The notes under the pieces: model-generated
The model's input: the letters and a program-made list of their open reading frames with translations, nothing else
Told to the model about the DNA's origin: nothing
The model's database searches: none
Translations under genes and position numbers: made by a program
In this document: piece by piece, positions 1 through 60,449 of the stretch
Layout of the letters: the number at the start of each line of letters is the position of its first letter
Numbering within the stretch: position 1 is the first letter of the stretch
Origin: a virus
Lineage: Duplodnaviria; Caudoviricetes
Virus record (IMG/VR): IMGVR_UViG_3300007760_000655
Span: 1-61,299 of that record
Reading direction: 5' to 3' (one strand)
DNA: 61,299 nt

Positions 1-3000
1 GATAATAATTTTCAACATTTAGTATTGAATAGCAACGGTACGATAGCTTTTCAACAAAGAACAACTGGTGGGGGTAATATCTTTTATGAATATACAACTC
101 CAGTGTATCGTGACCCTTCAGCTTGGTACCATATTCTTCTTGCAGTAGATACGACACAAGCAACAGATACTAATAGAGTTAAATTTTATGTTAATGGTGC
201 ACAGGTTACGGATTTAAGTTATTCTGGTTCAATTGATAATTATCCAGCCCAAAATTACGAAGGGTTTATTAATGATGCTTTAGAACACCGAATAGGTATA
301 TGGCAAGAAACTGGAGGGGGTGGTAGCCGAGGTGGTCATATGTATATGGCAGAAGTACATTTCATAGACGGACAAGCCTTAACCCCAGCTTCATTTGGAG
401 AAACAGGTACTTATGGTGAATGGAAACCTAAGGAAGTTACAGGTGTGACATACGGAAATAATGGATTCTATCTACCATTCAAGCAAGACTATACAGTAGA
501 GGGTTTTAGTACGGTTACTTGGAAAGGTAATGGAAACTACGGACATTATATTGGTGGTACTGGATTTAAACCAGATTTAATTTGGACAAAAAGACGAGAC
601 GGTTCAGTTTCTCATCAACTTGTAGATGTCATTAGAGGTGCTGGAAATAGACTAAATTCTAATAATACAAACTCAGAAGGTACATATATTGGTGTTAATT
701 CATTTAATTCTGATGGATTTTCATTAGGAACAGATGATGCTTACAATGGAAGCGGTTCATCTTATGTATCTTGGAACTGGGATATGGGTGCTAATAGTCC
801 TACTGGTTTTGGTTGTGTTATTTGGACAGGCAATGCGGTAGATAATCGAGAAATTTCAGGAGTTGGTTTTCAGCCTGATTTAGTTTGGCTTAAGTCTAGG
901 AGTGATGCAGACCATACTTATGTACAAGATTCTGTTAGAGGGGCTCAAAAACAATTAATTACTACTGAAACAGGTGCTGAAACAAGTTATACAAATGGTG
1001 TTAAATCTTTTACTCCTGATGGATTTACATTAGGCACTTCAAATTGGGCTGGTGAAGATAATCAAACAAGAGTTGCTTGGTGTTGGGATATGGGAGGTAC
1101 TACTGCTACTAATACAGATGGTAGTATTACTTCAACTGTAATGGCTAATCCTACTTATGGGCAATCTATAGTATCTTGGGAAGGTACAGAAGCTAATGCT
1201 ACTATTGGACACGGATTAAGTTCTGCACCTGAAATGATAATTGTAAAAAATCGTGATAGAGTTTGTAATTGGGAAGTTTATTATGGAGATAATACAGACT
1301 ACTTAAGATTAAATACAACAGATGCGACAGTTGATAATGTTAATAGATGGAATGATACATCACCAACATCATCTGTTATATCACTAGGAGCAGGAGCAAA
1401 TGTAAATGGTAATAATGAAAGTGTTATAGCATACTGTTTCCATAGTGTATCTGGCTACAGCAAGTTTGGAACTTATACAGGTGATGCTACAACTAACCAC
1501 TCTAATAGTGTAACTTTAGGATTTAGACCAGCATTTTTAATGGTTAAGAAAACAAGCGGTACTGGTAATTGGGTTATAGTTGATAATGTTCGTAATCCAA
1601 TGTCTAATGATGTTGATAAATATGTTAAAGCAGATACTACTGATGCAGAAGCTACACAGTCTGGAGAGTTATTTAAGTTTACTTCTACTGGATTTACAAT
1701 TGGAGCAAATTTAGGTGATGTAAATGCTAGTGGGGCAACTTATGTTTATATGGCATTTGCTGGTGGTATGGATAGTATCTCAGACTACAATGATACTGGC
1801 TCAATAGACTCTAGGGTTAAAGCAAATCCTACTTATGGACAGAGTATAGTTAAATATGTTGGTGACCAGACTTCTGCTCAAACAGTTGGACACGGACTTA
1901 GTTCCGCTCCAGAAATGATAATAGTTAAAGAATTAGAACTTGCTAAAAGTTGGGCTGTTTACCATACAGGTTTAGGAAATACACATTCATTAAAACTAAA
2001 TGATGATAGTGCTACTTATGATAATGTTAATAGGTGGAATGATACTACACCAACTAGCACAGTATTTTCAATAGGTACAAGTGATGAAACGAATTATACT
2101 GACGATAATCATATAGCCTACTGTTTCCATAGTGTAACTGGGTATAGTAAGTTTGATACATATACTGGTACAGCAGGTACTCATACAATTACAACAGGTT
2201 TTAATCCAGCGTTCATAATGATTAAGAGAACTAATACTACTGGTGAACATTGGTATATGTATGACAATACTCGTTTTCCTCATTCACAACAAAATAATGT
2301 AACTGCTAATAATGATAGTGCTGAAAGTGGTAATTCTTCTATGCTGATTAATTATCTTGCTACTGGATTTCAACTAGTTGGTACAAATGCTGGTATCAAT
2401 GCTTCAGGCGATACCTACATCTACGCAGCTTTCGCTGACAAACGAGAGTACGCTTATTGGTTAGACCAATCAGGCAATAATAATGACTGGGCAAGTAATA
2501 ACTTAACAGAGTCAGATATTATGGTTGATAGTCCTACGAATAACTTTGCTACAATGAATCCTTTAATAAATATGTCGGGTGAACAACCATCAAGTTATGC
2601 AGAAGGAAATTTAAAAGTTGTAACACCTGCCTCTGGTAATGGCTATACAAGTGGTACTATGGGTATGAGTAGCGGTAAGTGGTATTGGGAATTTTTAATG
2701 ACTGCCCATACTGGCTCTGCTGCTGCAAAAATTGGTATTACTAAGGGTATCTTAAATAATTCTGGTGCTGAAGCAGGGGATGTAGCAGATGAGTATATTT
2801 ATACTGCCTTAACTGGTTGGAAACAAAATGTTTCGGGTAGTGCTTATGGTGCTACTTGGACTACTGGCGATATTATTGGGGTTACTTATGATGCTGATGA
2901 TGGTGATTTAGTTTTTTATAAAAATAATGTTTCACAAGGAGATGCGTATACTGGATTAACTGGAACTTTCTTTCCAGTTATGTCAGATGCTAGTGGTGCT

Positions 3001-4176
3001 GCTCACGGTGTTACGATTAATTGGAACTTCGGTGCAGACTCAAGTTTCGCAGGTAACAAGACAGCACAAGGCAATCAAGATGGTAATAGTATAGGTGATT
3101 TCTATTATGAACCGCCTAGTGGTTTCTTAGCGTTATGTACATCTAACCTACCAGCAGCAACTGTTACACCTAGTGAGCATTTTAATACTGTGCTTTATAC
3201 TGGAACTACAGGTGGGCAGAGTATTACAGGAGTTGGGTTTCAACCAGATTTATTAGTAATAAAAAATTATCAAAATGCAGGATATAGCCATCAATGGTTT
3301 GATGTTCTTAGAGGTGTTACTAAGGATATTAATTCAAATAGTACTGAACAAGAACAAACTATTTCCGATTCTATGACTTCTTTTGATTCAGATGGATTTA
3401 CTTTAGGTGCTGATTCTAGTAATGCTGAAGTTAATAATAACACTAAGGGTTACATAGCTCACAGCTGGAAAGGTGGTGGTAGTGGTTCGGCTAATACTGT
3501 TGGTGATATAGATTCTACAGTAAGTGTTAATACAGATGCTGGGTTTAGTATTGTTAGTTATACTGGTGATGGTAATTCTCCTGCTACCATAGGACACGGA
3601 TTGTCTAAAGCACCAGAACTGATTCATATTAAGAATAGAACAGATGTTGATAGCTGGATTTCTTTTACCACAGTTATTGATGGCTCTCTTGATTATATGT
3701 ATCTTAATTTGACAAATGCTAAAGCAAACTTAGGTATCTCAACTCCAACATCTACTGTATTTAGTGTTGATGATGGCAACCAAATAAATGGTTCAGGTGA
3801 TGCACATATAGCCTACTGTTTTCACTCTGTAGATGGCTACTCTAAGGTCGGTTCATATACTGGTAATGGTAATGCTGATGGTACATTTGTGTACACAGGA
3901 TTCAGACCTGCTTATGTTTTAATAAAGCCATCAAGCCGAACTGGTCATTGGCATATAGTTAATAATGAATCAAGTCCTAGTAATGTGGTTGATAAAGTTA
4001 TATTTGCTAATGATAGTGCAGCAGAATATACAGACCCATCTGCTGATTGTAAAAAAGACTTTTTATCAAATGGTTTTAAGATAAGAACAACAGATGACAA
4101 CACCAATGAAAGTGGTTCGACATACATTTACATAGCATTTGCAGAAACACCTTTTAAATACGCAAACGCTAGATAG
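1..4176 (+). CDS. Tail fibre / receptor-binding protein, LamG/SPRY (ConA-like) domains plus repeated modules; 5' truncated by window
   Basis: Frame open from base 1; repeated modules (GVGFQPDLVW, GHGLSSAPEM, IAYCFHSV, GFRPAF), SPRY-like GKWYWE; paralogous to 7278..10712. Confidence 0.75.
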   Translation, partial: DNNFQHLVLNSNGTIAFQQRTTGGGNIFYEYTTPVYRDPSAWYHILLAVDTTQATDTNRVKFYVNGAQVTDLSYSGSIDNYPAQNYEGFINDALEHRIGIWQETGGGGSRGGHMYMAEVHFIDGQALTPASFGETGTYGEWKPKEVTGVTYGNNGFYLPFKQDYTVEGFSTVTWKGNGNYGHYIGGTGFKPDLIWTKRRDGSVSHQLVDVIRGAGNRLNSNNTNSEGTYIGVNSFNSDGFSLGTDDAYNGSGSSYVSWNWDMGANSPTGFGCVIWTGNAVDNREISGVGFQPDLVWLKSRSDADHTYVQDSVRGAQKQLITTETGAETSYTNGVKSFTPDGFTLGTSNWAGEDNQTRVAWCWDMGGTTATNTDGSITSTVMANPTYGQSIVSWEGTEANATIGHGLSSAPEMIIVKNRDRVCNWEVYYGDNTDYLRLNTTDATVDNVNRWNDTSPTSSVISLGAGANVNGNNESVIAYCFHSVSGYSKFGTYTGDATTNHSNSVTLGFRPAFLMVKKTSGTGNWVIVDNVRNPMSNDVDKYVKADTTDAEATQSGELFKFTSTGFTIGANLGDVNASGATYVYMAFAGGMDSISDYNDTGSIDSRVKANPTYGQSIVKYVGDQTSAQTVGHGLSSAPEMIIVKELELAKSWAVYHTGLGNTHSLKLNDDSATYDNVNRWNDTTPTSTVFSIGTSDETNYTDDNHIAYCFHSVTGYSKFDTYTGTAGTHTITTGFNPAFIMIKRTNTTGEHWYMYDNTRFPHSQQNNVTANNDSAESGNSSMLINYLATGFQLVGTNAGINASGDTYIYAAFADKREYAYWLDQSGNNNDWASNNLTESDIMVDSPTNNFATMNPLINMSGEQPSSYAEGNLKVVTPASGNGYTSGTMGMSSGKWYWEFLMTAHTGSAAAKIGITKGILNNSGAEAGDVADEYIYTALTGWKQNVSGSAYGATWTTGDIIGVTYDADDGDLVFYKNNVSQGDAYTGLTGTFFPVMSDASGAAHGVTINWNFGADSSFAGNKTAQGNQDGNSIGDFYYEPPSGFLALCTSNLPAATVTPSEHFNTVLYTGTTGGQSITGVGFQPDLLVIKNYQNAGYSHQWFDVLRGVTKDINSNSTEQEQTISDSMTSFDSDGFTLGADSSNAEVNNNTKGYIAHSWKGGGSGSANTVGDIDSTVSVNTDAGFSIVSYTGDGNSPATIGHGLSKAPELIHIKNRTDVDSWISFTTVIDGSLDYMYLNLTNAKANLGISTPTSTVFSVDDGNQINGSGDAHIAYCFHSVDGYSKVGSYTGNGNADGTFVYTGFRPAYVLIKPSSRTGHWHIVNNESSPSNVVDKVIFANDSAAEYTDPSADCKKDFLSNGFKIRTTDDNTNESGSTYIYIAFAETPFKYANAR

Positions 4177-7277: not shown

Positions 7278-10200
7278 ATGTCTTTAATTCCAGCAACAGC
7301 CATACCTGCCTCCTCAGGAGATTTCACTTTAGACCAGAGTCTTAGGTTTGAAGATGGAGATAGTGTTTATTTAAGTAAGACACCAGCTAGTGCTAGTAAT
7401 CGTAGAACTTTTACTTTTAGTGTATGGTTTAAAAGAGGTAATATTTCCTATGGAGCACCACATTTATTTCAACCATTTACTGATGTTAATAATTATGATG
7501 CAATAATGATAAATAGTTCAGACCAAATGATTATAAAAGGACAAGTAAGTGGTAGTTCTTCTTATAATTATACAACAAATCAAAAATTTAGAGATACTTC
7601 TGCTTGGTATCATATAGTTGTTGCTTTTGATACTACAAATGGAACTGCTGGAAATAGAATTAGGCTATATGTAAATGGAACAGAAGTTACAAGTTTTGCA
7701 ACAGAAACAAATCCAAGTGAAAATTTAGACACTAGATATAATTTAGATGTACTCCACAGAGTAGGTGCAAATGGCAGTGGTGGAGAATTATATGATGGCT
7801 ATATGGCAGAGATGCACTTCATAGATGGTACTGCCTTAACACCATCTTCATTCGGAGAAACAGGTGATTACGGAGAGTGGAAACCTAAAGAAGTAAGTGG
7901 AGTAACTTATGGTACTAATGGATTCTATCTACCATTCAAGCAAGACTATGAAGTAGAAGGTTTTAGTGCTAATGTTTATACGGGTACTGGTGCTGCTGAT
8001 AACATAGTGCCAGGTGTAGGCTTTTCACCAGATTTAGTTTGGATTAAAAATAGAACAAATGGGGGTTATTGGGGCACTATATATGACCAAATTAGAGGAA
8101 CTGAAGAGGCTCTATATCCTAATGACTCATCCGCTGAATCTACTATATCCAGTACTTTAACAGCGTTTAATACTGATGGTTTTACAGTGGGTACTAATGT
8201 AGGTTTAAATACAGATGATAACCCACACGTTGCTTGGTGCTGGGATATGGGTGGCTCTAATGCTTCTAACACTAACGGAAGTATTACTTCAACTGTCAGA
8301 GCAAATACTACTTATGGACAGAGTATAGTTTCTTATACTGGTACAGGTTCTAATGCCACAGTAGGACACGGACTTAGTTCTGCACCAGAAATGATGATTA
8401 TTAAACGCAGAAGTTCAAGTCAAAGTTGGTTTGTATACCATGATGGAATAGCTGCTGATGCACAAACTGATGCAATAAAATTAAATTCAACTGCTGCTGC
8501 TTTTGATGACGATGGTGCGTGGAATGATACTGCACCAACAAATGCTTTATTTAGTTTAGGTTCTTCTGGTGGTGTTAATCAAAGTAGTGGAACATATATA
8601 GCCTACTGTTTCCATAGTGTAACTGGGTATAGTTCATTTGGAACTTATAGTGGTACAGGTGGCACAGGAAATGTTACTACAGTTGGATTTAGACCTGCGT
8701 TTATAATGGTTAAAAAATCAAGCGGTACTGGTGATTGGATGATATTTGATACTGCTAGACAACCTGCACCAGATGCCAATAAAACACATAAATATTTAAA
8801 GGCTAATGAACCAAATGCTGAATATACAGCAGGTGATGATGCAGCGGTTACTATAACTGATACATCATTTCAGATGTTTGGAAATATTGGTAATACTAAT
8901 ACTAATGGTCAAACTTATATCTATATGGCTTTCGCTGACAAACGAGAGTACGCATACTGGCTAGACCAAAGTGGTAACAATAATGACTGGACTTCTAATA
9001 ACCTAACAGAGTCAGATATTATGGTTGATAGTCCTACGAATAACTTTTGTACTTATAATCCTTTATCTTCAAATGAAGTATCAGTTCTAATGGAAGGTAA
9101 TTTAAAAAATTACGGAACTAATAATACAGCGACTAATGCTACTTTTGGTGTAACAACAGGAAAATGGTATTGGGAAGTTAGTTGGAACGCTGATATTGCT
9201 ACATCAACAGTTTCTTGGAATGGTGTTACAAGTCATTCACAGGAAAACGATGGCGATACTGCACCAACTATGGTTGGTACTGCTGGCAGGTCAGTATATA
9301 GAAATAAGGGTACTAATACCCAATATAAAGACTATACAGCAACTTCTAGTACAGACGATACTGATGTGGATGCTGGTGGTATTATGGGTTTTCGACTTGA
9401 TATGGATGGTGGTTCTCTCAAGTATTACCGTAATAATACGCTAGTTCATACTGATAGCACTATACCTACAGATGGTACAGTTATATATCCTGTTGCTATG
9501 AATAATAATTCTGGGGTTGCTCGTTATAATTCAAGGGTAGCAAACTTCGGACAAGACTCAAGTTTCGCAGGTACTCAGACAGCACAAGGCAATCAAGATT
9601 CTAATGGTATAGGTGATTTCTATTATGAACCACCTAGTGGCTTCTTAGCATTATGTACATCTAACTTGCCAGCAGTAGCTGTTACACCTAGTGAGCATTT
9701 TAATACTGTGCTTTATACAGCTAATGCTGGAACTAATGCTATTACAGGAGTTGGCTTTCAACCAGATTTAAGTTGGTTTAAGATTAGAAGTTCTACTGGT
9801 AGTCCAGTTTTGTTTGATGCAATAAGAGGTGTAAATAGTGGATTAGCATCTAATCAAACTGCTGCTGAATATATTGCTGCTTCTGATAAAGACCTTGTTT
9901 CTTTTGACTCTGATGGATTTACATTAGGTGCTGGAGAAGATTGGGCGTCTGTAAACCAAACAAACGGTACAACACACGTTGCTTGGAACTGGAAAGCAAA
10001 TGGTAGTGGTTCATCTAATACTAATGGTTCTATAAATACGACAGCAACTTCTGCTAATGTTGACGCTGGGTTTAGTATTGTTACTTGGGTTGGAAACGAA
10101 GGTGCTGATGAAACTGTAGGACACGGATTATCTAAAGCACCAGAAATAATAATTGCTAAAGTATATAGTGGTTTGACAGGCTCTTGGGCAACCTATGTAA

Positions 10201-10712
10201 AAAGCTTAGGCAATAATAAAAAATTGCACCTGAACGGCACTGATGCTGTAACTACAGATACAGATGTTTGGGCAGAAACCACACCTACAGCAAGTGTATT
10301 TTCAATAGGAACTGATACAGAAACAAACTGGGATGGTAGAAGTTACGTAGCCTACTGTTTCCACTCTGTAGATGGCTACTCTAAGGTTGGTTCATATAAA
10401 GGTAATGGAAATAATGACGGAACATTTATTTATACAGGGTTTAGACCTAAATGGGTATTAATTAAAGAATCAAGTCATTCTGGAGAAAATTGGAATATAT
10501 ATGATGGAGTAAGAGATACCTATAATTATGTAAGTAAAGCTTTATTTCCAAATACAAGTGGTGCTGAAACATCTGGTGTATCACAATCTTTAGATTTTGT
10601 GTCTAATGGTTTCAAAATAAGATACAACAATAATCATTATAACGATTCTGCAAGTACATACATCTACTTAGCCTTCGCAGAAACACCTTTTAAATATTCA
10701 AACGCTAGATAA
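7278..10712 (+). CDS. Tail fibre / receptor-binding protein (LamG + SPRY + repeats), paralogue of 1..4176
   Basis: Same architecture and the same C-terminus AFAETPFKYxNAR. Confidence 0.75.
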   Translation: MSLIPATAIPASSGDFTLDQSLRFEDGDSVYLSKTPASASNRRTFTFSVWFKRGNISYGAPHLFQPFTDVNNYDAIMINSSDQMIIKGQVSGSSSYNYTTNQKFRDTSAWYHIVVAFDTTNGTAGNRIRLYVNGTEVTSFATETNPSENLDTRYNLDVLHRVGANGSGGELYDGYMAEMHFIDGTALTPSSFGETGDYGEWKPKEVSGVTYGTNGFYLPFKQDYEVEGFSANVYTGTGAADNIVPGVGFSPDLVWIKNRTNGGYWGTIYDQIRGTEEALYPNDSSAESTISSTLTAFNTDGFTVGTNVGLNTDDNPHVAWCWDMGGSNASNTNGSITSTVRANTTYGQSIVSYTGTGSNATVGHGLSSAPEMMIIKRRSSSQSWFVYHDGIAADAQTDAIKLNSTAAAFDDDGAWNDTAPTNALFSLGSSGGVNQSSGTYIAYCFHSVTGYSSFGTYSGTGGTGNVTTVGFRPAFIMVKKSSGTGDWMIFDTARQPAPDANKTHKYLKANEPNAEYTAGDDAAVTITDTSFQMFGNIGNTNTNGQTYIYMAFADKREYAYWLDQSGNNNDWTSNNLTESDIMVDSPTNNFCTYNPLSSNEVSVLMEGNLKNYGTNNTATNATFGVTTGKWYWEVSWNADIATSTVSWNGVTSHSQENDGDTAPTMVGTAGRSVYRNKGTNTQYKDYTATSSTDDTDVDAGGIMGFRLDMDGGSLKYYRNNTLVHTDSTIPTDGTVIYPVAMNNNSGVARYNSRVANFGQDSSFAGTQTAQGNQDSNGIGDFYYEPPSGFLALCTSNLPAVAVTPSEHFNTVLYTANAGTNAITGVGFQPDLSWFKIRSSTGSPVLFDAIRGVNSGLASNQTAAEYIAASDKDLVSFDSDGFTLGAGEDWASVNQTNGTTHVAWNWKANGSGSSNTNGSINTTATSANVDAGFSIVTWVGNEGADETVGHGLSKAPEIIIAKVYSGLTGSWATYVKSLGNNKKLHLNGTDAVTTDTDVWAETTPTASVFSIGTDTETNWDGRSYVAYCFHSVDGYSKVGSYKGNGNNDGTFIYTGFRPKWVLIKESSHSGENWNIYDGVRDTYNYVSKALFPNTSGAETSGVSQSLDFVSNGFKIRYNNNHYNDSASTYIYLAFAETPFKYSNAR

Positions 10713-21767: not shown

Positions 21768-22499
21768 TTAAGAAGCTGCTGCGTTTTTAGCTGCTTTCTT
21801 AGCACCGTCATGATTTGAACAAGACAAGCCACGGCGTGTTAACATAGTTTTAACACCACGTACCGTCTTATCAATAGACTCGGCTATCTGCTCTACAGTT
21901 AGACCAGAAATATCGCCTAGAGCTTCAAGAGCGTCCACGTTTGCTTTAGCACGTGACTCTTTCTGCTTTGGAATTGAAGTTATGTCGCCAGAACGTAGGA
22001 AAGATAATGCTTTACCACGAATTGAGTTAATAGACTTACCTAATTTTTCTGCTAGCTCTTCAACGAAAGCACCGTTAGCGTGCATTTCTAAGAAAGTAGC
22101 TTCTTCAGCAGGAGTGTAAGTACGAGCGACCTCGATTTTTTCTGCAGGTTTAACATGGTCAGTTAATTCCATAGAAAGAATTTTACCTTGAACTTGCTTA
22201 GCAGTAAAGTTACCACCTTCGAAGTTACCAGCAATATCTGCATATGTGTAAACGCCACTGTTACCAGTAACGAAGCTAGCCAAACTATCTGCTTGACTAT
22301 CAGTGAAGGCCTTTTTATGAGCAGAACTTGCTAGTTCTACGTCATGACCCATTTTACGTAGCTTAGAGCTAACAGAGCGAGTAGTTGTATCAAGCTCTAC
22401 TGCTGCTGAGGCTACAGTTTCTTGTGACACAGTGCCCATACCTTCAACTATTGCTGAAAGGATACGAGTACGGTCTTCTGTCCATCTTGGAGTTGTCAT
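21768..22499 (-). CDS. D5: D5-like DNA-binding protein with tandem HTH repeats
   Basis: RSVSSKLRKMG, KQVQGKILSMELT, NSIRGKALS, RGVKTMLTRRG repeats; position after ligB. Confidence 0.85.
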   Translation of the reverse strand: MTTPRWTEDRTRILSAIVEGMGTVSQETVASAAVELDTTTRSVSSKLRKMGHDVELASSAHKKAFTDSQADSLASFVTGNSGVYTYADIAGNFEGGNFTAKQVQGKILSMELTDHVKPAEKIEVARTYTPAEEATFLEMHANGAFVEELAEKLGKSINSIRGKALSFLRSGDITSIPKQKESRAKANVDALEALGDISGLTVEQIAESIDKTVRGVKTMLTRRGLSCSNHDGAKKAAKNAAAS

Positions 22500-23260
22500 A
22501 ATAAATGTTCCTTTAATATTTCTTTTATTGTTAAAATTGGAATACCATAGCTTTCAGCTTTAGTACTCTTACTTGATTTTCTTCCTTCTTCATCCACTAA
22601 GTAATCTGTTTTCTTAGTAACAGAGGAAGTAACGGTAAACCCTTTAGATTCTAAATACTCTTTTGCAAGAGTTCTATTTTTAAAATCGTTAAGTTTCCCT
22701 GTAATACAGACTGATTTTCCGATACTTTCAGCTGTTGGTTCTTGTACATCTGCCCTGAATGAAAAAGGCAAATACTCTAAGTTATCTTTAAATTGATTTT
22801 GATACCAATTGAGTAAGTTAGCACAGGATTTCGGCCCCAGTCCTGCTGCAGTAGCGCTGGTTGAAGTAATATCTTTCATGTTAGAGATTTTACTAAACAG
22901 TCGCTTGGAAGCAGTGTTGCCTATTAATGGAATGGAGAAAGCTGGAAGGAGAGTTCTCGCATCAACAGATTTACTATTTTCAATCTGCTTAAACAATTTC
23001 TCGCCCAGCTTTTCACCAATCTCAGTGGATATTTCCTTTTCTGTTATAGAATAAATATCCGATATAGAATTTAGAGGTAACTTTTCAATCGTTTTCGGCC
23101 CAAGCCCTTTAATTTTCAAGGTCTTTGCGAAATGCTCTATCAATTTGCTAGACTTAGCCTCACACTTGTTGTTCCTACAGAAAAGTTGGTCTTTCACCAA
23201 TTCTAATGTAGAGTCGCAAGTGGGACATGAGGTAGGTTCGTTAATAGTTGTTAAATTCAT
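22496..23260 (-). CDS. ligB: NAD-dependent DNA ligase subunit B (Zn finger, HhH, BRCT)
   Basis: CPTC...C.N..C, IKGLGPKT, BRCT CITGKL...SVTKKTDYL; start moved to ATG 23260 because a promoter lies in the upstream ORF extension. Confidence 0.88.
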   Translation of the reverse strand: MNLTTINEPTSCPTCDSTLELVKDQLFCRNNKCEAKSSKLIEHFAKTLKIKGLGPKTIEKLPLNSISDIYSITEKEISTEIGEKLGEKLFKQIENSKSVDARTLLPAFSIPLIGNTASKRLFSKISNMKDITSTSATAAGLGPKSCANLLNWYQNQFKDNLEYLPFSFRADVQEPTAESIGKSVCITGKLNDFKNRTLAKEYLESKGFTVTSSVTKKTDYLVDEEGRKSSKSTKAESYGIPILTIKEILKEHLL

Positions 23261-23290
23261 CTTGTTATTTCTCAATTTTCTATATAATAT

Positions 23291-23319
23291 ATTATACTGA
23301 AGTTTTACCAAAAAGTCAA
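23291..23319 (-). promoter_or_regulatory. sigma70 promoter between ligA and ligB
   Basis: TTGACT-17nt-TATAAT. Confidence 0.8.
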
Positions 23320-23339
23320 GTGTTATTTTTTTCGATGTC

Positions 23340-24311
23340 TTAACTGACTCTTTCAATAATTCGGGGGATTATCTTGCCCGCCCTTATTACCTTTACTCGA
23401 CACCCTATTTCAAGATTCAAACTTTTGATGTATGCCATGTTGTTCAAGGTTGCCCTCGAAATGATAGCATCATCAATTTCAATAGGGTCTAGTATTGCTA
23501 CTGGAGTAACTTTTCCACTTTTACCTGTTTGCCATATTACATCTAATAATGTGGTTTCAATACCTTCTTCCCTAGTTTTAAGAGCATAAGCTCCTCTAGG
23601 GTGATGAGAAGTGAAACCTAACGTTATGTATTCTATATTGTCATTTACACGGAATACTTTCCCGTCAGTTGGGAACTCCTCCCAATCACTATCCATTGCT
23701 GTATTAAAACCAGAGTATTCTAAATGGCTCATATCGCCCTCATATGTAGAACTAATATTAGGTTCTATATTATACGCTATAAAAGTAAGGTTTCTTCTTT
23801 TAAACTCCTCAATATCTTTTAAGTTTAATGCTCCTGCTGCGTAATTCCGTGCATTCGGAATTTCTTTGGGAGCTACTATTTCACCTGTAACTTGTAATAG
23901 TCCTTGATTTTTAATATAGTGCCCTGTACCTGCAAATGTGTACTCGGGGTATAGCTTTTGAGGTACGATACTATTATTTAAAAATTTGTCTGTTACTTCT
24001 ATTCCTGCTTTACCATCTCCTCTAGTAATTACACTAGAAAGTTTTCCGTTTCTATACTGTATAGAAATTGCTGCCCCATCTAATTTAGGGGTTTCAATTA
24101 CTTTACTTTTGTATACGGGTGGAGTGTCTTCCCCTTCGAATACTTTTTGTAACGAGTACAAGGGAAACATATGTAACATTCTAGCGTCAGGATTGTATCC
24201 TACACGTTCATAGTCCTCTTTCTTAGCGAGGGAGTCAAATTCTTCGTCTGACAAAAAAGGCGAACCTTCGAAGTACGCCTTTGATGCCTTATCTAATAGT
24301 TCTTTAGTCAT
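23340..24311 (-). CDS. ligA: NAD-dependent DNA ligase subunit A (adenylation + OB)
   Basis: KLDG, TRGDG, RNYAAG, DG.V, RATLNN. Confidence 0.93.
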   Translation of the reverse strand: MTKELLDKASKAYFEGSPFLSDEEFDSLAKKEDYERVGYNPDARMLHMFPLYSLQKVFEGEDTPPVYKSKVIETPKLDGAAISIQYRNGKLSSVITRGDGKAGIEVTDKFLNNSIVPQKLYPEYTFAGTGHYIKNQGLLQVTGEIVAPKEIPNARNYAAGALNLKDIEEFKRRNLTFIAYNIEPNISSTYEGDMSHLEYSGFNTAMDSDWEEFPTDGKVFRVNDNIEYITLGFTSHHPRGAYALKTREEGIETTLLDVIWQTGKSGKVTPVAILDPIEIDDAIISRATLNNMAYIKSLNLEIGCRVKVIRAGKIIPRIIERVS

Positions 24312-24594
24312 ATAAATCTTTTAGTAAGTCTTTAAAGTGTTCTTGTATAATAGTTTTGCTTTCTGATAAGGATAGTAGTTCTACTAAACCTTCAAATAAG
24401 TTGGATAGACTGTTAAGTTCAAATGGAATACATACTCCCTCTTTCGTGGGTTTGTACTCCCCCTCAAAGTCTAAATAGTATTTTCTTATATGAACATACT
24501 CAACATCTCTGAAAGTAGATACAACTAACCTATATTGTATTTCTTTATCTTCTTGTTCTAGAATTATTTTTTCATAAACATCATCACCTGTCAT
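24304..24594 (-). CDS. PC4/transcriptional coactivator p15-like ssDNA-binding protein
   Basis: FRDVEYVHIRKYY...PTKEGV. Confidence 0.8.
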   Translation of the reverse strand: MTGDDVYEKIILEQEDKEIQYRLVVSTFRDVEYVHIRKYYLDFEGEYKPTKEGVCIPFELNSLSNLFEGLVELLSLSESKTIIQEHFKDLLKDLYD

Positions 24595-29841: not shown

Positions 29842-30192
29842 TCAATCATCATAGTGTTCACCTTCAGCTAATAGGTGTACTATATTCAACATTGTAAATC
29901 CTCTACGCAGTTTTTGACAAGTCATACTATTTGCTTGGTCATAACCTCTTGCGTAATAGGCATCTTGAGTATCTTCTGTAGAAAAACCATGTATCTCTAC
30001 TGCTTTTTCTATAAATTCTCCTCCTAGTACTGATATGCCACCACATCTTACGTGGTAGTTTGCCATAGCACCCAGTACTGCTCCTGTATAATCTCTATAC
30101 TCTAGAAGTAATTTTTCATTCCAGTTATCTCCTAGTTCTGAAAAACTACTTGTAGAACATATTAAGAGTAAAGTACATATTAGTTTTTTCAT
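29842..30192 (-). CDS. Hypothetical exported protein
   Basis: N-terminal signal peptide MKKLICTLLLICSTSSFS. Confidence 0.55.
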   Translation of the reverse strand: MKKLICTLLLICSTSSFSELGDNWNEKLLLEYRDYTGAVLGAMANYHVRCGGISVLGGEFIEKAVEIHGFSTEDTQDAYYARGYDQANSMTCQKLRRGFTMLNIVHLLAEGEHYDD

Positions 30193-30512
30193 ATTCCGTA
30201 GTCCTTTAACCAGTGTGCAAAAAATCCTTTATCTGTTACTCCTGTGTGTCTGGCAACCTCTGTGCCATTAACAAATAGAACTAGAGTAGGGATACTTCTA
30301 ATGTTATATCTTTCAGATAAATACTTGTTTTCATCTACATCTATCTTTACAACACCAAATTCACCGTAACCATCTCTTGCAACCTTCTCTAATATTGGAG
30401 CCATCTGCTTACAGGGTTCACACCAACTAGCATAGAAATCTACTATAACTAGACTTTTATTTAGTACATCATAATCAAATCTATTATCATCTGACGCTAT
30501 TACATAACTCAT
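30189..30512 (-). CDS. trxA: Thioredoxin
   Basis: VDFYASWCEPCK, IRSIPTL; probable start ATG 30512 after AGAGG SD. Confidence 0.92.
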   Translation of the reverse strand: MSYVIASDDNRFDYDVLNKSLVIVDFYASWCEPCKQMAPILEKVARDGYGEFGVVKIDVDENKYLSERYNIRSIPTLVLFVNGTEVARHTGVTDKGFFAHWLKDYGI

Positions 30513-30529
30513 ACAGTTTCCTCTTAAAT

Positions 30530-30800
30530 TAAGTTGGAGGCTGTTGTAGGACAGCCTGCCTAAACCTGTTGCTCTTATACCAACCGAGGTGTTTTTCGTC
30601 ATGCCTCATCCGACTACAGGATATTTTCTCATTGAGGGGTCTTCCCGTGACCTATCCTTAGTTAAAGTCTAATCTATTTCAGCCCCATCAGGGTGACACT
30701 AACACACTAAATGTGTGGGAGGAGCATGTTAATGCCACATTGGTGGAGCTGGCTGGTACTGCCCCAGCGTGCTAAAACCATTGGATTTAATCCTTTCGCA
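30530..30800 (-). ncRNA. ssrA: Circularly permuted (two-piece) tmRNA-like gene
   Basis: T-arm GCTGG-GGCAGTA-CCAGC + CAGCTCC-A-CCA ending at 30741, a 54-nt spacer, then GGGGCTGAAATAGATTAGAC starting at 30686; 7-bp acceptor stem with G3.U alanine determinant; outer ends approximate. Confidence 0.85.
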
Positions 30801-30809
30801 GATATAGGC

Positions 30810-31195
30810 AAAAAAGTGGGGGGAGGTTTCCGCGTCTGACCTCACCCCCGCCTAGGCTACGTCTATTAGAATTTCTTTTCTCTCAAAGAGGGAAGTCGAT
30901 TCAAGGCACTAGTTTCCCATGACTTCAAGTCTCCTTATTTTAGGGCGTGAAAGACTCCTACGCCCCTAACTACATTTTTTTATCCTGCGATTCGTTTAGA
31001 ACTTGCAGTCTTAACTAGCTGGTTTGGTCTTCGCCCCTTTAGTTGCTAAGCCTTTATCCAACCACCAATCAGTACGGAATGCTATCAATACCCCCTCTGA
31101 CGAGTTTTCGGGTCAGTTGTTTCTGTTCCCCTACTTGATACTGAAGCCCTTATTTGACATTGGCTGTTAATTACTGGTTAAATTTCTCAATTTCT
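30810..31195 (-). ncRNA. Candidate structured ncRNA (~380 nt)
   Basis: Between perfect promoter 31203-31231 and a hairpin+T6 at 30810-30853; no credible ORF; many hairpins. Confidence 0.5.
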
Positions 31196-31202
31196 GAACT
31201 AT

Positions 31203-31231
31203 ATTATACTCGGAAATCACCAAAATGTCAA
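31203..31231 (-). promoter_or_regulatory. sigma70 promoter driving the ncRNA/tmRNA cluster
   Basis: TTGACA-17nt-TATAAT. Confidence 0.85.
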
Positions 31232-31635
31232 GTTATATTTTTCAGAGAAGGATTAGGTAAGAAATCCAATATACCCAAGCGGCTATTAGTCCAACCACCA
31301 AAAATGCAAATATTAAATTGTTATGTATTGTTTTCATTTTCTCCAATCGTTACGCCACAAAGGGCGTGGTTTAGTTTGTTCTTCCTCTCTTTTTTCTTTC
31401 TCTCTTTTTTCTTCCTGCAGTTTTAGGTACTGCATCATTGTTCTATCTACCTTTATTAAACCCATATTTTTAAGTTCCATATTAGTAACAATTTATGTTT
31501 CTCCCTTCTGCTATGGCTTCTAATACATCTATACCATATAATACTGAGAGGCTTTGGCAGGAGTCTGCCACTATACTATAGCCTATGATTAAACCTAACC
31601 CTAGAGTTAAAACACCCCCTATGGTTAGTATAAAT

Positions 31636-49306: not shown

Positions 49307-51136
49307 ATGAAGAAGCTAGCTGTAATAGTGCCATTATTATTGGCATTGTTACTTACATTCGTACACTATAACGGTGGCAAGGTTGTAGAAACGGCCAAGC
49401 TTAAACAGTTCGATTTACTTCAACAAACAGATGAACCCGTACTATCTCAGGATATTGGAGTTCTCACAATAGATGAGGAAGCTATAGAGAAGTATGGTCA
49501 ATGGCCTTGGTCTAGAGAAATACTAGGTGATTTAATTTGGAACTTACGCGAGGCGGGAGCAGGCATAATAGTTGTTCCAATCCTTTTTTCGGAAGAAGAT
49601 AGGCTAGGTGGAGACGAGTTATTTGTATCCGCACTACCAAACAACGGTGTAGTTATTGCACAGGTTGGTTCTAGCCAAATAAATAAGAATGGTGTACCTA
49701 GAGGTGTAGCGAAAATAGGAGACCCAATTCCGTTCCTCTTTGAGTGGGGCGGTATGCTTGGGCCGATACCCTTATTAGGACTGAATGCAGATGGAGTTGG
49801 AGTACTAAATACGGTACCCGAGATTGACGGAGTTGTACGTCGATTGCCTCTTATGATGCGCATAGGAGAAGAAGTATATCCTTCAATAGCGGTGGAAGTA
49901 CTTAGAGTTGCAACTGGTAATCCTTCATATCAGGTTAAGGCTAACGCGGGCGGTATAAGCGCAGTACGTGTTAAAGGTTTCCCAGTTATGAAGACTGACC
50001 AGAATGCTCGAATCTGGCTGAGGTGGAATAAGAAATTTGATACAGTTTCTGCCGCCTCTACCGATTTATCTTCTTTTGAAGGGAGAACAGTATTAATAGG
50101 AGCAACGGCGGAAGGTGTTGGTGGTAAGATTGGCTCACCAACTGGCCCACAACATAACTTCATCCCTGCTGCAGTTTCTTTACAAACACTAATAGAGGGA
50201 GAAACTATACAGAGGCCGTACTGGGCTCATACTGCGGAATTACTAACAACATTACTACTTGGATTATTTATTGTTGTTTTAGTAAGGTTTGCTCCGTACT
50301 GGTTAATTGGATTATTCTTTGCAGTAGATATAGGTGCGCTTGTTTACGGTACATTGTACGCATGGCAGAACTACTTATATTTACTGAATATGACAATGGC
50401 TCTGACTACTACTTTAATAGTAGGACTCGTAGCAGTATTTGGCAGATTTATAATAGAATTTAAAGCCAAACAACTTATTAAGAAACAGTTTGAGCACTAT
50501 CTCGACCCACGACAGGTCGCTATACTGCAAAAGAACCCAGAGATGCTTAAGTTGGGTGGCGATAGGAAAGAAATGTCGTTTTTGTTTTCTGACATTGTAG
50601 GGTTTACCCCAATTTCAGAACATTTTAAAAATAATGATGACCCAGAAGGGTTGTGTGAATTAATTAATGACTACCTGGATAGAATGACCAAAATTATTAA
50701 CGATAATGGTGGTTGTGTAGATAAATATATGGGTGACTGTATTATGGCGTTTTGGAACGCACCTATACCATGTGAGAACCACGCCGAGATGGCTGTAAAG
50801 AGTTCTATGGAGATAGCAGTCGAGACAGAGAAGCTTAAAGCCGAACTAGCTGCTAAAGGGTTACCAGAAATAAAAATAGGCTCTGGTGTGAATACTGGAG
50901 ATTGTATTGTTGGTAATATGGGTTCCAAGACTAGGTTTGATTATTCTTGTATCGGTGACGCAGTTAACTTAGCCGCTAGACTTGAGGCACAGACTAGACA
51001 ATATCCTAACTGTACTACTTTATACTCATCTTACACAATGGAACAATTACCTAATAATATGAAGTCAGTAGAAATTGATAAAGTTAAGGTGAAAGGTAAA
51101 GATGAACTAGTTACTATATATTCACCAACGGAGTAA
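49307..51136 (+). CDS. CHASE2-domain class III adenylate cyclase
   Basis: IDE...GQWPWSR, DGVVRR (CHASE2), 3 TM, FSDIVGFT, DKYMGD (adenine-selecting Lys), GDAVNLAARLE. Confidence 0.93.
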   Translation: MKKLAVIVPLLLALLLTFVHYNGGKVVETAKLKQFDLLQQTDEPVLSQDIGVLTIDEEAIEKYGQWPWSREILGDLIWNLREAGAGIIVVPILFSEEDRLGGDELFVSALPNNGVVIAQVGSSQINKNGVPRGVAKIGDPIPFLFEWGGMLGPIPLLGLNADGVGVLNTVPEIDGVVRRLPLMMRIGEEVYPSIAVEVLRVATGNPSYQVKANAGGISAVRVKGFPVMKTDQNARIWLRWNKKFDTVSAASTDLSSFEGRTVLIGATAEGVGGKIGSPTGPQHNFIPAAVSLQTLIEGETIQRPYWAHTAELLTTLLLGLFIVVLVRFAPYWLIGLFFAVDIGALVYGTLYAWQNYLYLLNMTMALTTTLIVGLVAVFGRFIIEFKAKQLIKKQFEHYLDPRQVAILQKNPEMLKLGGDRKEMSFLFSDIVGFTPISEHFKNNDDPEGLCELINDYLDRMTKIINDNGGCVDKYMGDCIMAFWNAPIPCENHAEMAVKSSMEIAVETEKLKAELAAKGLPEIKIGSGVNTGDCIVGNMGSKTRFDYSCIGDAVNLAARLEAQTRQYPNCTTLYSSYTMEQLPNNMKSVEIDKVKVKGKDELVTIYSPTE

Positions 51137-52234: not shown

Positions 52235-52521
52235 TGGAATTAGGTGAAATAATCAATAAGTATGGTTTCCCTATTATCGCAGCAGGTGGTTTAGGTTATT
52301 TTATATACTTTATATGGAGATGGGTAACTGAGAAAGTAGACCCGATTATTGGTGAGAGTCATATGACTCTTATTGCTCTAATTGATAGAATACGAATGTT
52401 AGATAATGATTTAATCAGACTTAATGCTAAATTAGATATGATTATACAGCAAAAGGAAGAAGCGAATGAAATTAAAACTAACGATATTACTACTTCTAAG
52501 TCTAACGGCTCAGGCGGGTAA
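52234..52521 (+). CDS. Small membrane protein (paralogue of 51140)
   Basis: GFPIIA...GYF, LIDRIRMLDNDLIR. Confidence 0.6.
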   Translation: MELGEIINKYGFPIIAAGGLGYFIYFIWRWVTEKVDPIIGESHMTLIALIDRIRMLDNDLIRLNAKLDMIIQQKEEANEIKTNDITTSKSNGSGG

Positions 52522-52951
52522 TCTAAATTTCAGTTTTAGTAACCCATCATTTAGTGGGGAAGGGTACTCAAGCCACGTACTGTCGATTGAGCAACTGCAA
52601 CACAATAGAGAACAAGGTGTACTAGATGACGCAACCGCAGCAGAGAAAGCCGCGGATAGAGCAGCTAAGAACACTACTTTAGCTAAGTTTGTAACTAATG
52701 TTGAAAGTCGTATATTTGCAAATCTTTCTAAGCAGATGGTGGATAATATGTTTGGTACTAATTGTACTCCATCTGATGATGAAATAGCAGATGACGTAGA
52801 ATGTCCTACCTCAGGTTCAGCAACTTTACCAGATGGGTCTACCGTACATTGGATAAAGGATGAAACAGCAGAAACTATTACATTAACAGTTACCGATGCT
52901 TCTGGAAGTATAACTCAATTGATTGTACCAGTGGGTGATTTTAAATTTTAA
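52466..52951 (+). CDS. csgF: Curli assembly protein CsgF-like
   Basis: Signal peptide then L.F.FSNPSFSG; adjacent to csgG. Confidence 0.8.
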   Translation: MKLKLTILLLLSLTAQAGNLNFSFSNPSFSGEGYSSHVLSIEQLQHNREQGVLDDATAAEKAADRAAKNTTLAKFVTNVESRIFANLSKQMVDNMFGTNCTPSDDEIADDVECPTSGSATLPDGSTVHWIKDETAETITLTVTDASGSITQLIVPVGDFKF

Positions 52952-52961
52952 GGTGATTAAT

Positions 52962-53858
52962 ATGGAGTACCTAGCAATAGCTTTATTATCCTGTGTAGTG
53001 GGAGCTTGTTCTGTTAATCAAAAAACAGAAGCAATACAGGGCGATATGCCTTTTGTACAAGGAACTCCAACTAAAACCTTGTTACAAGAGATGCCAGAGC
53101 TGATAAACGTGCCGACAGATGGCGAGGGTAACCCAGTAAAGATTACGGTAGCTGTTTACAAGTTCCCTGATGTTACAGGACAGAGAAAGCCAGTTGGATT
53201 ATCGACAGCAGTTTCACAAGGAGCTGATGTATGGGTTATACAGGCTTTAATGGCAGTTAGTAATGGAGAATGGTTCACAGTTGTCGAAAGAGCGAGTTTA
53301 GACTCTTTAGTTAAAGAAAGACAACTTATAAGGAGTACTAGAGAATTATATGACGGCACAGACGCAGGAGATGCGTTACAGCCTATGTTATTCGCAGGTT
53401 TAATATTAGAAGGCGGTATTGTTGGTTATGATACTAACACAACAAGTGGGGGTGCTGGAGCAAGATATTTTGGTTTAGGTTCACATGAAGAATATAGAAC
53501 AGACCAAGTAACAATATCTTTAAGACTCGTTGCTGTACAGACAGGAGAGATTCTACTGACTGTATCATCAACTAAAACAATAGCAAGTATCAGTAATGGA
53601 GCAGATGTATTTAGATTTTTAGATTTGGGTACAAGAGCTTTAGAAATAGAATCAGGCAATGCAGCGAATGAGCCAGTTAACTATGCTATTCGAACTGCAA
53701 TTGAATACGGAATTTTACAAATGCTTTACGACGGTAAAGAAAAAGGGCTATGGGAGTGGGAAGAATCAACAACCGCAGAAGTTGTTGAGAACGTAGTCGA
53801 TTATGAATTAGTAGACGGTTGGGCACAACACCCAATTTCTGAAAAACAAGGGGAATAA
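52962..53858 (+). CDS. csgG: Curli secretion pore CsgG
   Basis: Lipobox VGAC, AVYKFPDVTGQRK, STAVSQG, VVER..L..L.KERQLIR, EGGIVGYDTN. Confidence 0.92.
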   Translation: MEYLAIALLSCVVGACSVNQKTEAIQGDMPFVQGTPTKTLLQEMPELINVPTDGEGNPVKITVAVYKFPDVTGQRKPVGLSTAVSQGADVWVIQALMAVSNGEWFTVVERASLDSLVKERQLIRSTRELYDGTDAGDALQPMLFAGLILEGGIVGYDTNTTSGGAGARYFGLGSHEEYRTDQVTISLRLVAVQTGEILLTVSSTKTIASISNGADVFRFLDLGTRALEIESGNAANEPVNYAIRTAIEYGILQMLYDGKEKGLWEWEESTTAEVVENVVDYELVDGWAQHPISEKQGE

Positions 53859-58585: not shown

Positions 58586-59587
58586 ATGAATAAATTCGAT
58601 TATGTATGGTTAGATGGCTATTTGCCTGAACCTAACCTAAGAAGTAAAGTAAAAATAGGTAAAACTGCAGATGTGTGGTCATTTGATGGCTCATCTACTA
58701 AGCAAGCTACAGGGGATAAATCAGATTGTATCTTAAACCCAGTAGCACATTATAAAACAATTGACAGAATTCGTCCTGACGCTACACGTACGGGTCCAGG
58801 GTTGGGTGGTACTTATGTAATGTGTGAAGTTTTAGACGCAAACTATGAGCCGCATGAAAGTAATACTAGAACATACTGTGAAGGTATAAGTGAGGATTGG
58901 TGGTTTGGGTTTGAACAAGAATACTTTATGTATAAGAATGGGCGCCCACTAGGGTGGCCTAGTGAGCTGAGAGGAGACCCAGAACCGCAAGGAGAGTACT
59001 ACTGTGGCGTCGGTACGGGTAATGTAGTGGGCAGAGCAATTGTTGATAGACATACTGAAGCTTGCATGAATGCAGGAATAGGTATAACAGGTACTAATGC
59101 TGAAGTTGCCTTAGGGCAATGGGAGTATCAGGTATTAGGTAAAGGAATAAAGGCGGGAGACGACTTATGGATGTCCCGTTATATTCTTATTAAGATTGCA
59201 GAGAAACACGGTGTAGAAATCAATTTCCACCCCAAACCTCAGCAAGGTGATTGGAATGGGTCTGGTATGCATACTAACTTCTCTAATAGTTTCATGAGGA
59301 ACGAAGGGGGAGAAATGGAACTGCTAAGCATGTGCCATAAATTAAGTTTAAACCACGAAGTAGCTATGGTATTATATGGTTCTAATAACAACTTAAGATT
59401 AACAGGGAAGCATGAAACCCAATCTATAGATAAATTTAGTTACGGAGTTAGTGACAGGGGAGCAAGTATACGTATCCCTGCTATAGTAGCTACTGAATGG
59501 AAAGGGTACTTAGAGGATAGGAGACCCGCTTCAAATGCAGACCCTTACAAAGTAATGCGACATATTGTCGAAGCATTAGAAGAATAG
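58586..59587 (+). CDS. glnII: Glutamine synthetase type II
   Basis: [54 protein letters not shown]; 333 aa. Confidence 0.93.
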
Positions 59588-59588
59588 A

Positions 59589-59909
59589 ATGACATTAACA
59601 AAACAAGCCGCACACGTAATGCTAGACCGACTTAAGAATAGAGGTTCGGGGTTAGGTATTCGAGTGGGGGTGAGAACCGCAGGATGTTCTGGGTATGAAT
59701 ATGCCTTAGAATATGTAGATTCACTAAATAGTGATGATACTGTATTTAAAAATAGAGGAGTAAATCTTATTGTTGATTCTAAAAGTCTATTGTACTTGTC
59801 AGGTACAGAATTAGACTATCAAAGACAGGGTCTTAATGAGGGGTTTGAATTTTACAACCCAAATGTTAAGGCAGCGTGCGGGTGCGGGGAGTCAGTAACA
59901 TTTAATTAA
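59589..59909 (+). CDS. iscA: Fe-S cluster assembly protein IscA
   Basis: GCSG, NPN...CGCGES. Confidence 0.93.
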
Positions 59910-59918
59910 GGATAAAAA

Positions 59919-60440
59919 GTGGTAACAATAATAGATGAGTTTTTGGAACCGAGTTTACATAATTGGATATGTAAAGGAATTATAGAAAATAAATATTTTC
60001 CCTGGTACTTCCAACCAGTTACTGTACCTAACCCATTAATAAAACCTACTTTCAATACCTATTATGAACCTCAATCTAGTTACAATCATTTAATATATTT
60101 AGAGGAGTGGAGTGACTGGGGGCATTTAGTTAAGCCTATAATAGATAAGCTGGAAGTAGATAGAGTTTCTAGAATAAAGGTAAACTCTGTAATTAAAAGA
60201 AAACAACCTACTTTACATGGTTGGCATTTAGACCAAGCAAGGGAAGGAGAAAGTAAAGAAGATTTAAAAATAGCAATATATTATTTAAATACTACTAATG
60301 GGTACACTCTTTTAGAAGATGGTACTCGGATAGCTTCAGTAGCAAATAGACTTGTTATGTTTAATAATACTATGTTACATACTTGTGTTTCACAAACAGA
60401 TGTATATAGAAGAGTTGTAATAAATATAAACTATTACTAA
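59919..60440 (+). CDS. 2OG-Fe(II) oxygenase-like protein
   Basis: WHLD, YYLNTTNGYT, H....TD..RVVININY. Confidence 0.7.
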   Translation: MVTIIDEFLEPSLHNWICKGIIENKYFPWYFQPVTVPNPLIKPTFNTYYEPQSSYNHLIYLEEWSDWGHLVKPIIDKLEVDRVSRIKVNSVIKRKQPTLHGWHLDQAREGESKEDLKIAIYYLNTTNGYTLLEDGTRIASVANRLVMFNNTMLHTCVSQTDVYRRVVININYY

Positions 60441-60449
60441 GGAGAAATT

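Follow-up and report, generated by a model that had tools for sequence, protein, structure and literature searches.

A candidate two-piece tmRNA-like gene without a recognizable tag, next to a thioredoxin gene, in a clade of uncultured marine phages

The 61,299-nucleotide (nt) stretch of DNA considered here (the window) is the viral record IMGVR_UViG_3300007760_000655 (Duplodnaviria; Caudoviricetes), and its minus strand carries a non-coding locus in which a gene resembling that for transfer-messenger RNA (tmRNA) precedes a gene for thioredoxin. About 727 bases separate a small upstream open reading frame (ORF) from the thioredoxin gene, and their minus strand is without an ORF of 40 or more amino acids (aa). 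Read in the minus-strand direction, a sigma-70-type promoter (TTGACA-17 nt-TATAAT, 31203..31231; 12 of 12 consensus matches) is followed by a conserved non-coding RNA of about 375 nt (30810..31196), its start near 31196 placed from the position of the promoter, then by the adjoining acceptor piece of the tmRNA-like gene (30741..30809), a 54-nt intervening spacer (30687..30740), a coding piece of about 150 nt (30531..30686) that begins at 30686, and the thioredoxin gene, trx (30189..30512). The limits of the acceptor piece come from Rfam alignments, its 5′ limit being uncertain. With somewhat more than an even chance when all its parts are taken jointly, the two pieces constitute a circularly permuted, alphaproteobacterial-type, diverged tmRNA-like gene of an uncultured marine phage clade whose product acts through its tRNA-like domain, has no defined tag and is linked in frame to thioredoxin by chance.

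The tRNA-like domain has several of the features by which a tmRNA is recognized. Its acceptor stem joins GGGGCUG at the head of the coding piece (30686-30680) to CAGCUCC of the acceptor piece (30751-30745) in seven base pairs, one of them a G3:U, and the 3′ strand runs on into ACCA (30744-30741), a discriminator A and an encoded CCA end. Beside the acceptor 3′ strand is a T stem-loop (GCUGG-GGCAGUA-CCAGC, 30768-30752, placed on the T arm by the Rfam alignments); there is no anticodon arm, and the 5′ strand is followed by a D-loop-like stretch, the Rfam alignments putting AAAUAGAUUAGAC on the D-loop region. The order along the DNA, first the 3′ half with its CCA, then the spacer, then the 5′ half, is that of the permuted form of the gene. 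After the D-loop-like stretch comes CUUUAAC (30667-30661), one strand of helix P2, the other being GGUUUUAG in the acceptor piece (30779-30772); in the Rfam pairing GUU meets AAC and UAG meets CUU, with one non-standard pair, and further P2 pairs can be seen by eye, in shifting registers and without a formal count (AUCC/GGAU in the window, CCAU/AUGG in the relative L041). The remainder of the coding piece comprises a structured module (30660-30586), a small hairpin (30568..30584) and a 3′ hairpin (30557-30538) that is followed by CCAACU. Two covariance models, RF04321 (tmRNA_permuted) and RF01849 (alpha_tmRNA), match minus-strand positions 30654-30782, the tRNA-like domain only, and both also match 10 of the 10 relatives tested with an E-value (E) below 1e-3; no other Rfam family was reported on the domain, lower-scoring matches of the same clan not being listed.

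Two other readings of the domain were set aside. RNAalifold offers a one-piece structure in which an upstream GGGGC pairs with the acceptor 3′ strand, and this pairing breaks in the three loci where the acceptor strand has changed, while the downstream GGGG(A/C)UG compensates. As for an integration site, a family search found no integrase family among the 88 ORFs of the window, and both halves of the domain covary.

Relatives were reached by two routes. A protein search with thioredoxin gave two viral contigs in which the genes are arranged as in the window, and a T-arm/acceptor pattern scan of metagenomes gave at least 119 stretches, of which, among the matches listed, 18 share the whole locus by blastn. 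The locus is thus present at the same place in at least 20 other viral or metagenome loci, and at least part of the stretch recurs in the sequencing runs of 12 studies. The comparison set, the window included, has 14 distinct coding-piece sequences and 11 full-length loci that extend from promoter to trx. The exact T-arm/acceptor sequence was met in no contig of a species-representative collection of 185,579 bacterial and archaeal genomes, a phage collection gave no DNA match to the window, and three further viral-contig scans returned only the two contigs already known and one chance match in a coding region (L052). A degenerate pattern for the upstream RNA had at least 120 matches, none extending past 24 nt, and these were discarded as chance.

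The remaining metagenome matches listed are ends of ordinary one-piece or two-piece tmRNA genes. ARAGORN calls none of 13 clade loci; of 47 other loci among the matches listed, 14 receive a permuted-tmRNA call with a tag of AN..AA type and 33 receive no tmRNA call. A permuted-gene pattern that joins a CCA end to a start with GGGGCUGAAAU matched 37 viral contigs, at least one of which (L008) is not a tmRNA and two of which are incomplete at their ends; from these 37, 27 distinct sequences have canonical AN..AA-stop tags, and five of five such viral-contig tmRNAs tested score 89-119 bits with the full RF04321 model.

The pattern of conservation is the reverse of that expected for a gene whose purpose is to encode a tag. 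Among 10 relatives, identity to the window is 95-100% in the 3′ half of the tRNA-like domain (39 nt up to the CCA) and 89-100% in the 5′ half; it is 79-98% in the spacer and 74-93% in the first 300 nt of trx, which nine of the 10 reach, and in the message part, from P2 to the 3′ hairpin, it is 94-95% in the three closest and 43-52% in the other seven. The fifth pair of the acceptor stem has changed on both strands from C:G to A:U in four of 15 aligned loci (L041, L042, L088 and L150), and the G3:U is kept in all 15. The message part, by contrast with the domain that frames it, consists of interchangeable structured modules and is the fastest-evolving part of the locus. Its segment after P2 is swapped for other hairpin or pseudoknot modules among the relatives, its length differs by amounts that are no multiple of three, and a 12-nt insertion in L077 merely lengthens one of its hairpins. 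A tmRNA has pseudoknot PK1 just ahead of its resume codon; in the GGCGUCAACGACUUGGACGUUAAACAGUC module of the relatives an H-type pseudoknot is possible by eye and the covariance model aligns the module's hairpin to a stem of its own; the window's module is a different one, which RNAalifold folds into nested helices. As judged from these comparisons, the tRNA-like domain is under strong constraint and a tag is not.

Tag absence bears this out. A preliminary description of this DNA had translated the three frames of the coding piece and found no canonical tag, and the same holds here: an AN..AA-stop tag is lacking from the window's three frames, from 14 of 14 distinct coding pieces and from the 11 full-length loci between promoter and trx. 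Nor do the 14 distinct sequences share a reading frame, a length, a stop or a C-terminus. From the resume-like codon considered below, a stop comes after 7-29 codons in 10 of the 14, and the ends of these 10 frames differ (LQLI, LHLI, LQL, TASN, SNLI, EIV, VPH and RLP); the corresponding frame of L090 reads AVGSGRLSLTASN-stop. Two candidate tags were tried and dropped. What looked by eye like a relic of a canonical ...DYALAA-stop tag in L042 did not stand out in local alignment, in which the message parts of 10 clade members scored 14-20 against 27 canonical resume-plus-tag stretches and shuffled sequences had a median of 17-18 and a 95th percentile of 21-24. A hidden tag, ATKGAKTKPAS-stop, in the upstream RNA (approximately 31049-31014) falls within a hairpin loop whose stem covaries, and relatives differ in where it stops and how long it is.

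What the message part does retain is a loop. The small hairpin (30584-30568) has a GUUG/CAAC stem and a 9-nt loop, GUAUAAGAG, and in its motif GUAUAAGAG|CA the GCA at 30572-30570, which had been put forward as the best resume codon, straddles the junction of loop and stem. The four inner pairs are paired in 36 of 36 alignment cells over 13 loci, three of the four covary, and the covariation score of 0.444 compares with 0.241 in shuffles, none of 500 shuffles reaching it and all slid controls being lower. The UAAG-containing loop is kept in 13 of 13 aligned loci. In L119 the Rfam model aligns UUAAGU|GCU AGC, with high posterior, to its own resume site UAAaU|GCa AAC, and this alignment together with the conserved loop makes the GCA a probable homologue of the ancestral resume codon. 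The loop is, then, probably a vestigial resume site, and it appears to be under selection. Where homologues were to be aligned for a conserved resume site and frame, they have proved to share the site and not the frame.

The gene behind the coding piece is a thioredoxin gene. Its 107-aa product matches PF00085 over the whole fold (residues 6-103, E 1.1e-26) and has a CxxC motif, the active site being WCEPC; the ATG is at 30512 and the stop at 30189, and a Shine-Dalgarno sequence of its own, AAGAGGAAA, is at 30525-30517. All 18 loci that reach trx have the start ATGAGTTATGTA together with the ribosome-binding site. No terminator-like site lies between the coding piece and trx, which is probably co-transcribed with the RNA locus. 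In the window the frame from the GCA reads ATGLGRLSYNSLQLNLRGNC and continues, with no stop, into the initiator methionine of thioredoxin, and the preliminary description had suggested that an unprocessed transcript might append thioredoxin to stalled chains. An open run of this kind is seen in four of the 14 distinct sequences, which represent two lineages (the near-identical window, L128 and L160; and L073). The ribosome-binding spacer of trx, UUAAUUUAAGAGG (…CUUAAUUUAAGAGG…AUG), contains UAA in two frames and leaves open only that of trx; since the third frame is the trx frame itself, an in-phase run is expected in one case in three, and four in 14 is no more than chance. Distances from the start of the coding piece to the trx ATG (174, 175, 245, 171, 218, 173, 155, 158, 171, 159, 132 and 219 nt) fall into every class modulo 3, the frame that crosses the invariant 3′ hairpin differs from relative to relative, and single-nucleotide insertions or deletions near it separate close relatives (the window from L127, and L073 from L150). 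The link is absent from 10 of 14 distinct relatives, and with such non-conservation the idea of appending thioredoxin, for which it had been named in advance as disproof, is not supported; the caveat that the frame could be shared by chance holds, and follows trivially from where the stops in the trx spacer lie. The open frame in the window would on this comparison be a chance by-product.

How might such an RNA work? It would be matured like other two-piece tmRNAs, the spacer being cut out, and would function through its tRNA-like domain, charged with alanine, bound by host SmpB and EF-Tu and admitted to stalled ribosomes. Beyond that two outcomes can be envisaged. Ribosomes might be freed without a defined proteolysis tag being added, with termination at the first stop encountered, or at the stop of trx should the RNA stay joined to it; or the RNA might compete with the host tmRNA for SmpB and so dampen the tagging of phage proteins. 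An SmpB gene was found in none of three clade records, the window and two related viral records, all of them fragments estimated as 24-50% complete, and so the host protein would be needed. Action through the tRNA-like domain, by rescue without a degradation tag or by titration of SmpB, with the thioredoxin link due to chance, is modestly favoured on the sequence comparisons. The tag-less alternative of the preliminary description, with an RNA that rescues ribosomes or titrates SmpB, is in this way also the one preferred here, while its companion, the appending of thioredoxin, is not supported.

Several observations count against this reading and temper it. ARAGORN makes no tmRNA call in the window, and Rfam at its gathering score has no match there; the matches given above come from an E-value threshold search and are below the cut-offs, at 45.3 bits against 47 for RF04321 (E 2.6e-7) and 43 bits against 50 for RF01849 (E 1.9e-10), and among 10 relatives L119 alone, with 48.8 bits, passes the RF04321 cut-off. 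The D-loop-like stretch is off the family consensus, AUAGAUUAGAC in the window versus AaUGGuUUCGAC in the model, so alanylation and SmpB binding are assumptions only. The sole RNA-library contig over the tRNA-like domain, from a relative, spans the spacer at a depth of 2 and is either precursor or DNA carry-over. A frame containing NSLQL is terminal or passed through in six of 10 sequence types, a weak hint of a lineage-specific tag that is inconclusive since the sequences are related and chance would give one third. Finally, the conserved resume-like loop is an argument for continuing selection on some translation of the RNA, and this fits a tag whose content is irrelevant better than it fits a pure decoy. 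The layout agrees with the identification as tmRNA made in the preliminary description, and that identification is less secure than was assumed there.

Upstream of the two pieces the locus has a second element of interest. The promoter is the only strong one on the minus strand ahead of the non-coding locus and trx, and both its hexamers are identical in all 14 loci that reach so far. (Upstream of it, at 31381-31418, is a short low-complexity T/C-rich repeat, which read mapping passed over for that reason.) The RNA of about 375 nt that follows is unmatched in Rfam up to an E of 10 and has no minus-strand ORF of 40 aa or more. RNAalifold gives compensatory changes in 18 of its 75 pairs. It ends in a G+C-rich hairpin (30849-30818), 98% paired and with six of nine pairs covarying, and a U run (30815-30810), and it includes a pseudoknot helix that is 100% paired with three of six pairs covarying. 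The end-hairpin loop CGCGG can meet a downstream CUGCG in 98% of cells, with one-sided changes only; a UAGGC/GCCUA pairing around the same hairpin, paired in only 36-39% of cells (alignment A2), was not supported. Contigs of RNA libraries from four studies cover the stretch from 30852, 30885 or 30905 to 31104-31174; those of two studies stop at 30852/30853, and one from a relative stops at 30819, the foot of the hairpin, beside an adapter. Contigs of this type cannot prove transcription, strand or level, and hint weakly at ends. The weak hints are that the upstream RNA is a separate RNA ending at hairpin and U run, the tmRNA-like gene and trx being reached by read-through. For trx and most of the coding piece there is no RNA-library contig, which is evidence neither way. 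Strongly structured, represented in ocean RNA-library contigs and without family assignment, the upstream RNA merits study in its own right.

Some of these features would also suit a reading in which the tRNA-like structure has no role in translation and is purely a signal for RNA processing or stabilization: RNase P would cut 5′ of the GGGG, the CCA end would be trimmed, and the upstream RNA would be parted from the trx mRNA. A single strong promoter apparently serves the upstream RNA, the tRNA-like domain and trx alike, and the RNA-library ends (30852/30853 in two studies and 30819 in a relative) could reflect a separate upstream species. The spacer also speaks for it. Throughout the clade some 45 nt at its core are all but invariant, the total length ranging from 54 to 65 nt, and by eye GUGGCA within it is able to pair with UGUCAC; such conservation, unusual in a spacer, suggests a processing signal or another function. 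It is an observation of some curiosity that a segment supposedly discarded in tmRNA maturation is more conserved than trx. The invariant G3:U and ACCA are neutral in this respect. Left unexplained, if the structure is a processing signal, are the resume-like loop, the P2 helix, the alpha-type 3′ hairpin and the adoption of a permuted tmRNA architecture in place of an ordinary tRNA-like hairpin, and on these grounds we consider the proposal unlikely.

A further possibility is that there is a real tag, non-canonical and specific to each lineage. It would start at the GCA at 30572 and be 13-29 residues long in most relatives, the window's lineage having lost the stop by a 1-nt insertion and thereby acquired some 20 residues plus thioredoxin. 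Such a tag, the second idea of the preliminary description, presupposes that coding piece and trx mRNA are not separated. The conserved resume-like context is in its favor, as are the stops within 29 codons in 10 of the 14 sequences, the passage from coding piece to trx free of any terminator-like site, and the in-frame runs into trx in two lineages. Yet the 10 stops and four fusions equal what chance provides, two frames being closed by the ribosome-binding spacer of trx regardless. The conserved 3′ hairpin falls in different frames among relatives, 1-nt insertions or deletions set close relatives apart in just this region, and the C-terminal residues that would define a degron are not conserved. 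A tag of this kind is distinctly unlikely.

It is improbable that the locus is simply a decaying relic, a pseudogene of a once canonical phage tmRNA without present function. Scores under the detection thresholds and an unconstrained message part are what decay would leave, but the tRNA-like domain has diverged less than the neighboring protein gene, the acceptor stem has undergone compensatory change, and the locus has persisted at the same place in at least 20 other loci, with at least part of the stretch in sequencing runs from 12 studies. Least probable of all is that coding piece and trx mRNA remain one molecule after RNase P cutting and the alanine-charged RNA is a ribosome-capturing leader, with ribosomes that had stalled on broken messages of host or phage resuming at the conserved loop codon and being released at the first stop or, in lineages like that of the window, carried in frame into thioredoxin, though if true this would be a case of phage gene expression fed by rescued ribosomes without normal initiation.

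The favored reading, that of an RNA acting through its tRNA-like domain with no fixed tag, has its setting in a viral contig of 61.3 kb that is estimated to be about 50% complete and has a G+C content of about 36%. Replication genes on it encode a family A DNA polymerase, whose nearest counterparts are the polymerases of T5-like phages (46% identity), a primase, a DnaB-like helicase, a 5′-3′ exonuclease, ribonucleotide reductase and an NAD-dependent DNA ligase. The ligase is divided between two adjacent ORFs (22496-24311, minus strand), one with adenylation and OB domains and the other with the BRCT domain, and is adjoined by a gene for a PC4-like transcriptional coactivator (24304-24594). Two very large proteins encoded on the plus strand, of 1383 and 1144 aa (25-4176 and 7278-10712), each have a SPRY domain and repeated DUF7483 domains and are possible tail fibres or receptor-binding proteins. 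On the same strand, a protein of 609 aa (49307-51136) combines a CHASE2 sensor with an adenylate/guanylate cyclase domain, and host-like metabolic genes follow one another at 58586-60830; their products are a glutamine-synthetase-like protein that is short at 333 aa, an Fe-S assembly protein of IscA type, a 2OG-Fe(II) oxygenase and NifU/IscU. Genes for the curli-pore proteins CsgF and CsgG (52466-53858, plus strand) accompany the T5-like polymerase in this phage.

Phage tmRNAs are usually assumed to be copies of the host system, tag included. Seen against that assumption, the clade provides a natural system in which the two jobs of tmRNA, the freeing of ribosomes and the marking of proteins for destruction, are separated. 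Genes of this type are missed by ARAGORN and stay below the Rfam thresholds, and are in consequence probably under-counted in viromes.

The closest architecture is that of the two-piece alpha-type tmRNAs published for the OM43 phage Melnitz, pelagimyophages and cyanophages (Buchholz et al. 2022, PMC9004378). Shared with the window are the permuted order, the alphaproteobacterial-type T arm, a promoter just upstream and, immediately after the coding piece, a protein gene that has a ribosome-binding site of its own; the CsgF and CsgG genes are also common to the window and to pelagimyophages and phage Melnitz. In contrast, ARAGORN or Rfam calls the Melnitz-type RNAs and the 27 viral-contig relatives, all of which encode canonical AN..AA tags, whereas the window clade is without a conserved tag. 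The clade differs further in its conserved RNA of about 375 nt upstream and in a replication module that is T5-like rather than T4-like. With the bacterial alphaproteobacterial two-piece tmRNA (RF01849, the best-scoring specific model) the window gene shares the GGCAGUA type of T loop, the encoded CCA and the G3:U, and by eye the 3′ hairpin with the CCUCCA(A)CU behind it is similar to the 3′ end of the model; it is set apart by a score under the cut-off, by the lack of a tag and by a T-arm/acceptor sequence that is in no contig of the 185,579 genomes.

Absence of a tag has parallels elsewhere. The 2025 tmRNA database includes a "Permuted, no CDS" class of 72 unique sequences and comments that a tag frame is apparently missing from mitochondrial tmRNA (PMC11915505). 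Like the window gene, the permuted mitochondrial tmRNAs of jakobids and oomycetes (RF02544) are of alphaproteobacterial derivation and keep a tRNA-like domain without a recognizable tag frame; unlike it they are organellar and much reduced, and have a nucleus-encoded SmpB partner. Within the literature searched, of which the coverage was incomplete, no phage tmRNA was found described that is permuted and lacks a conserved tag. The clade described here has a two-piece tmRNA-like gene in which a tRNA-like domain and a resume loop are retained with no fixed tag, and which is joined to an unclassified structured RNA.

The nearest phage precedent, by analogy, is the tmRNA of mycobacteriophage DS6A, which is little more than a tRNA-like domain (Hudson et al. 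2014, PMC4131195; PMC11915505); a molecule similar to it is reported to be a strong inhibitor of host tmRNA, perhaps through titration of SmpB (PMC4131195). Both it and the RNA of the window are phage-borne tmRNA derivatives without a tag reading frame. The DS6A form is standard, that is non-permuted, whereas in the permuted gene of the window P2, pseudoknot-like modules, the 3′ hairpin and a resume-like loop have been retained. Beside DS6A the clade thus offers a second and independent phage example of a tmRNA derivative that may serve solely as a rescue factor or as a decoy for SmpB.

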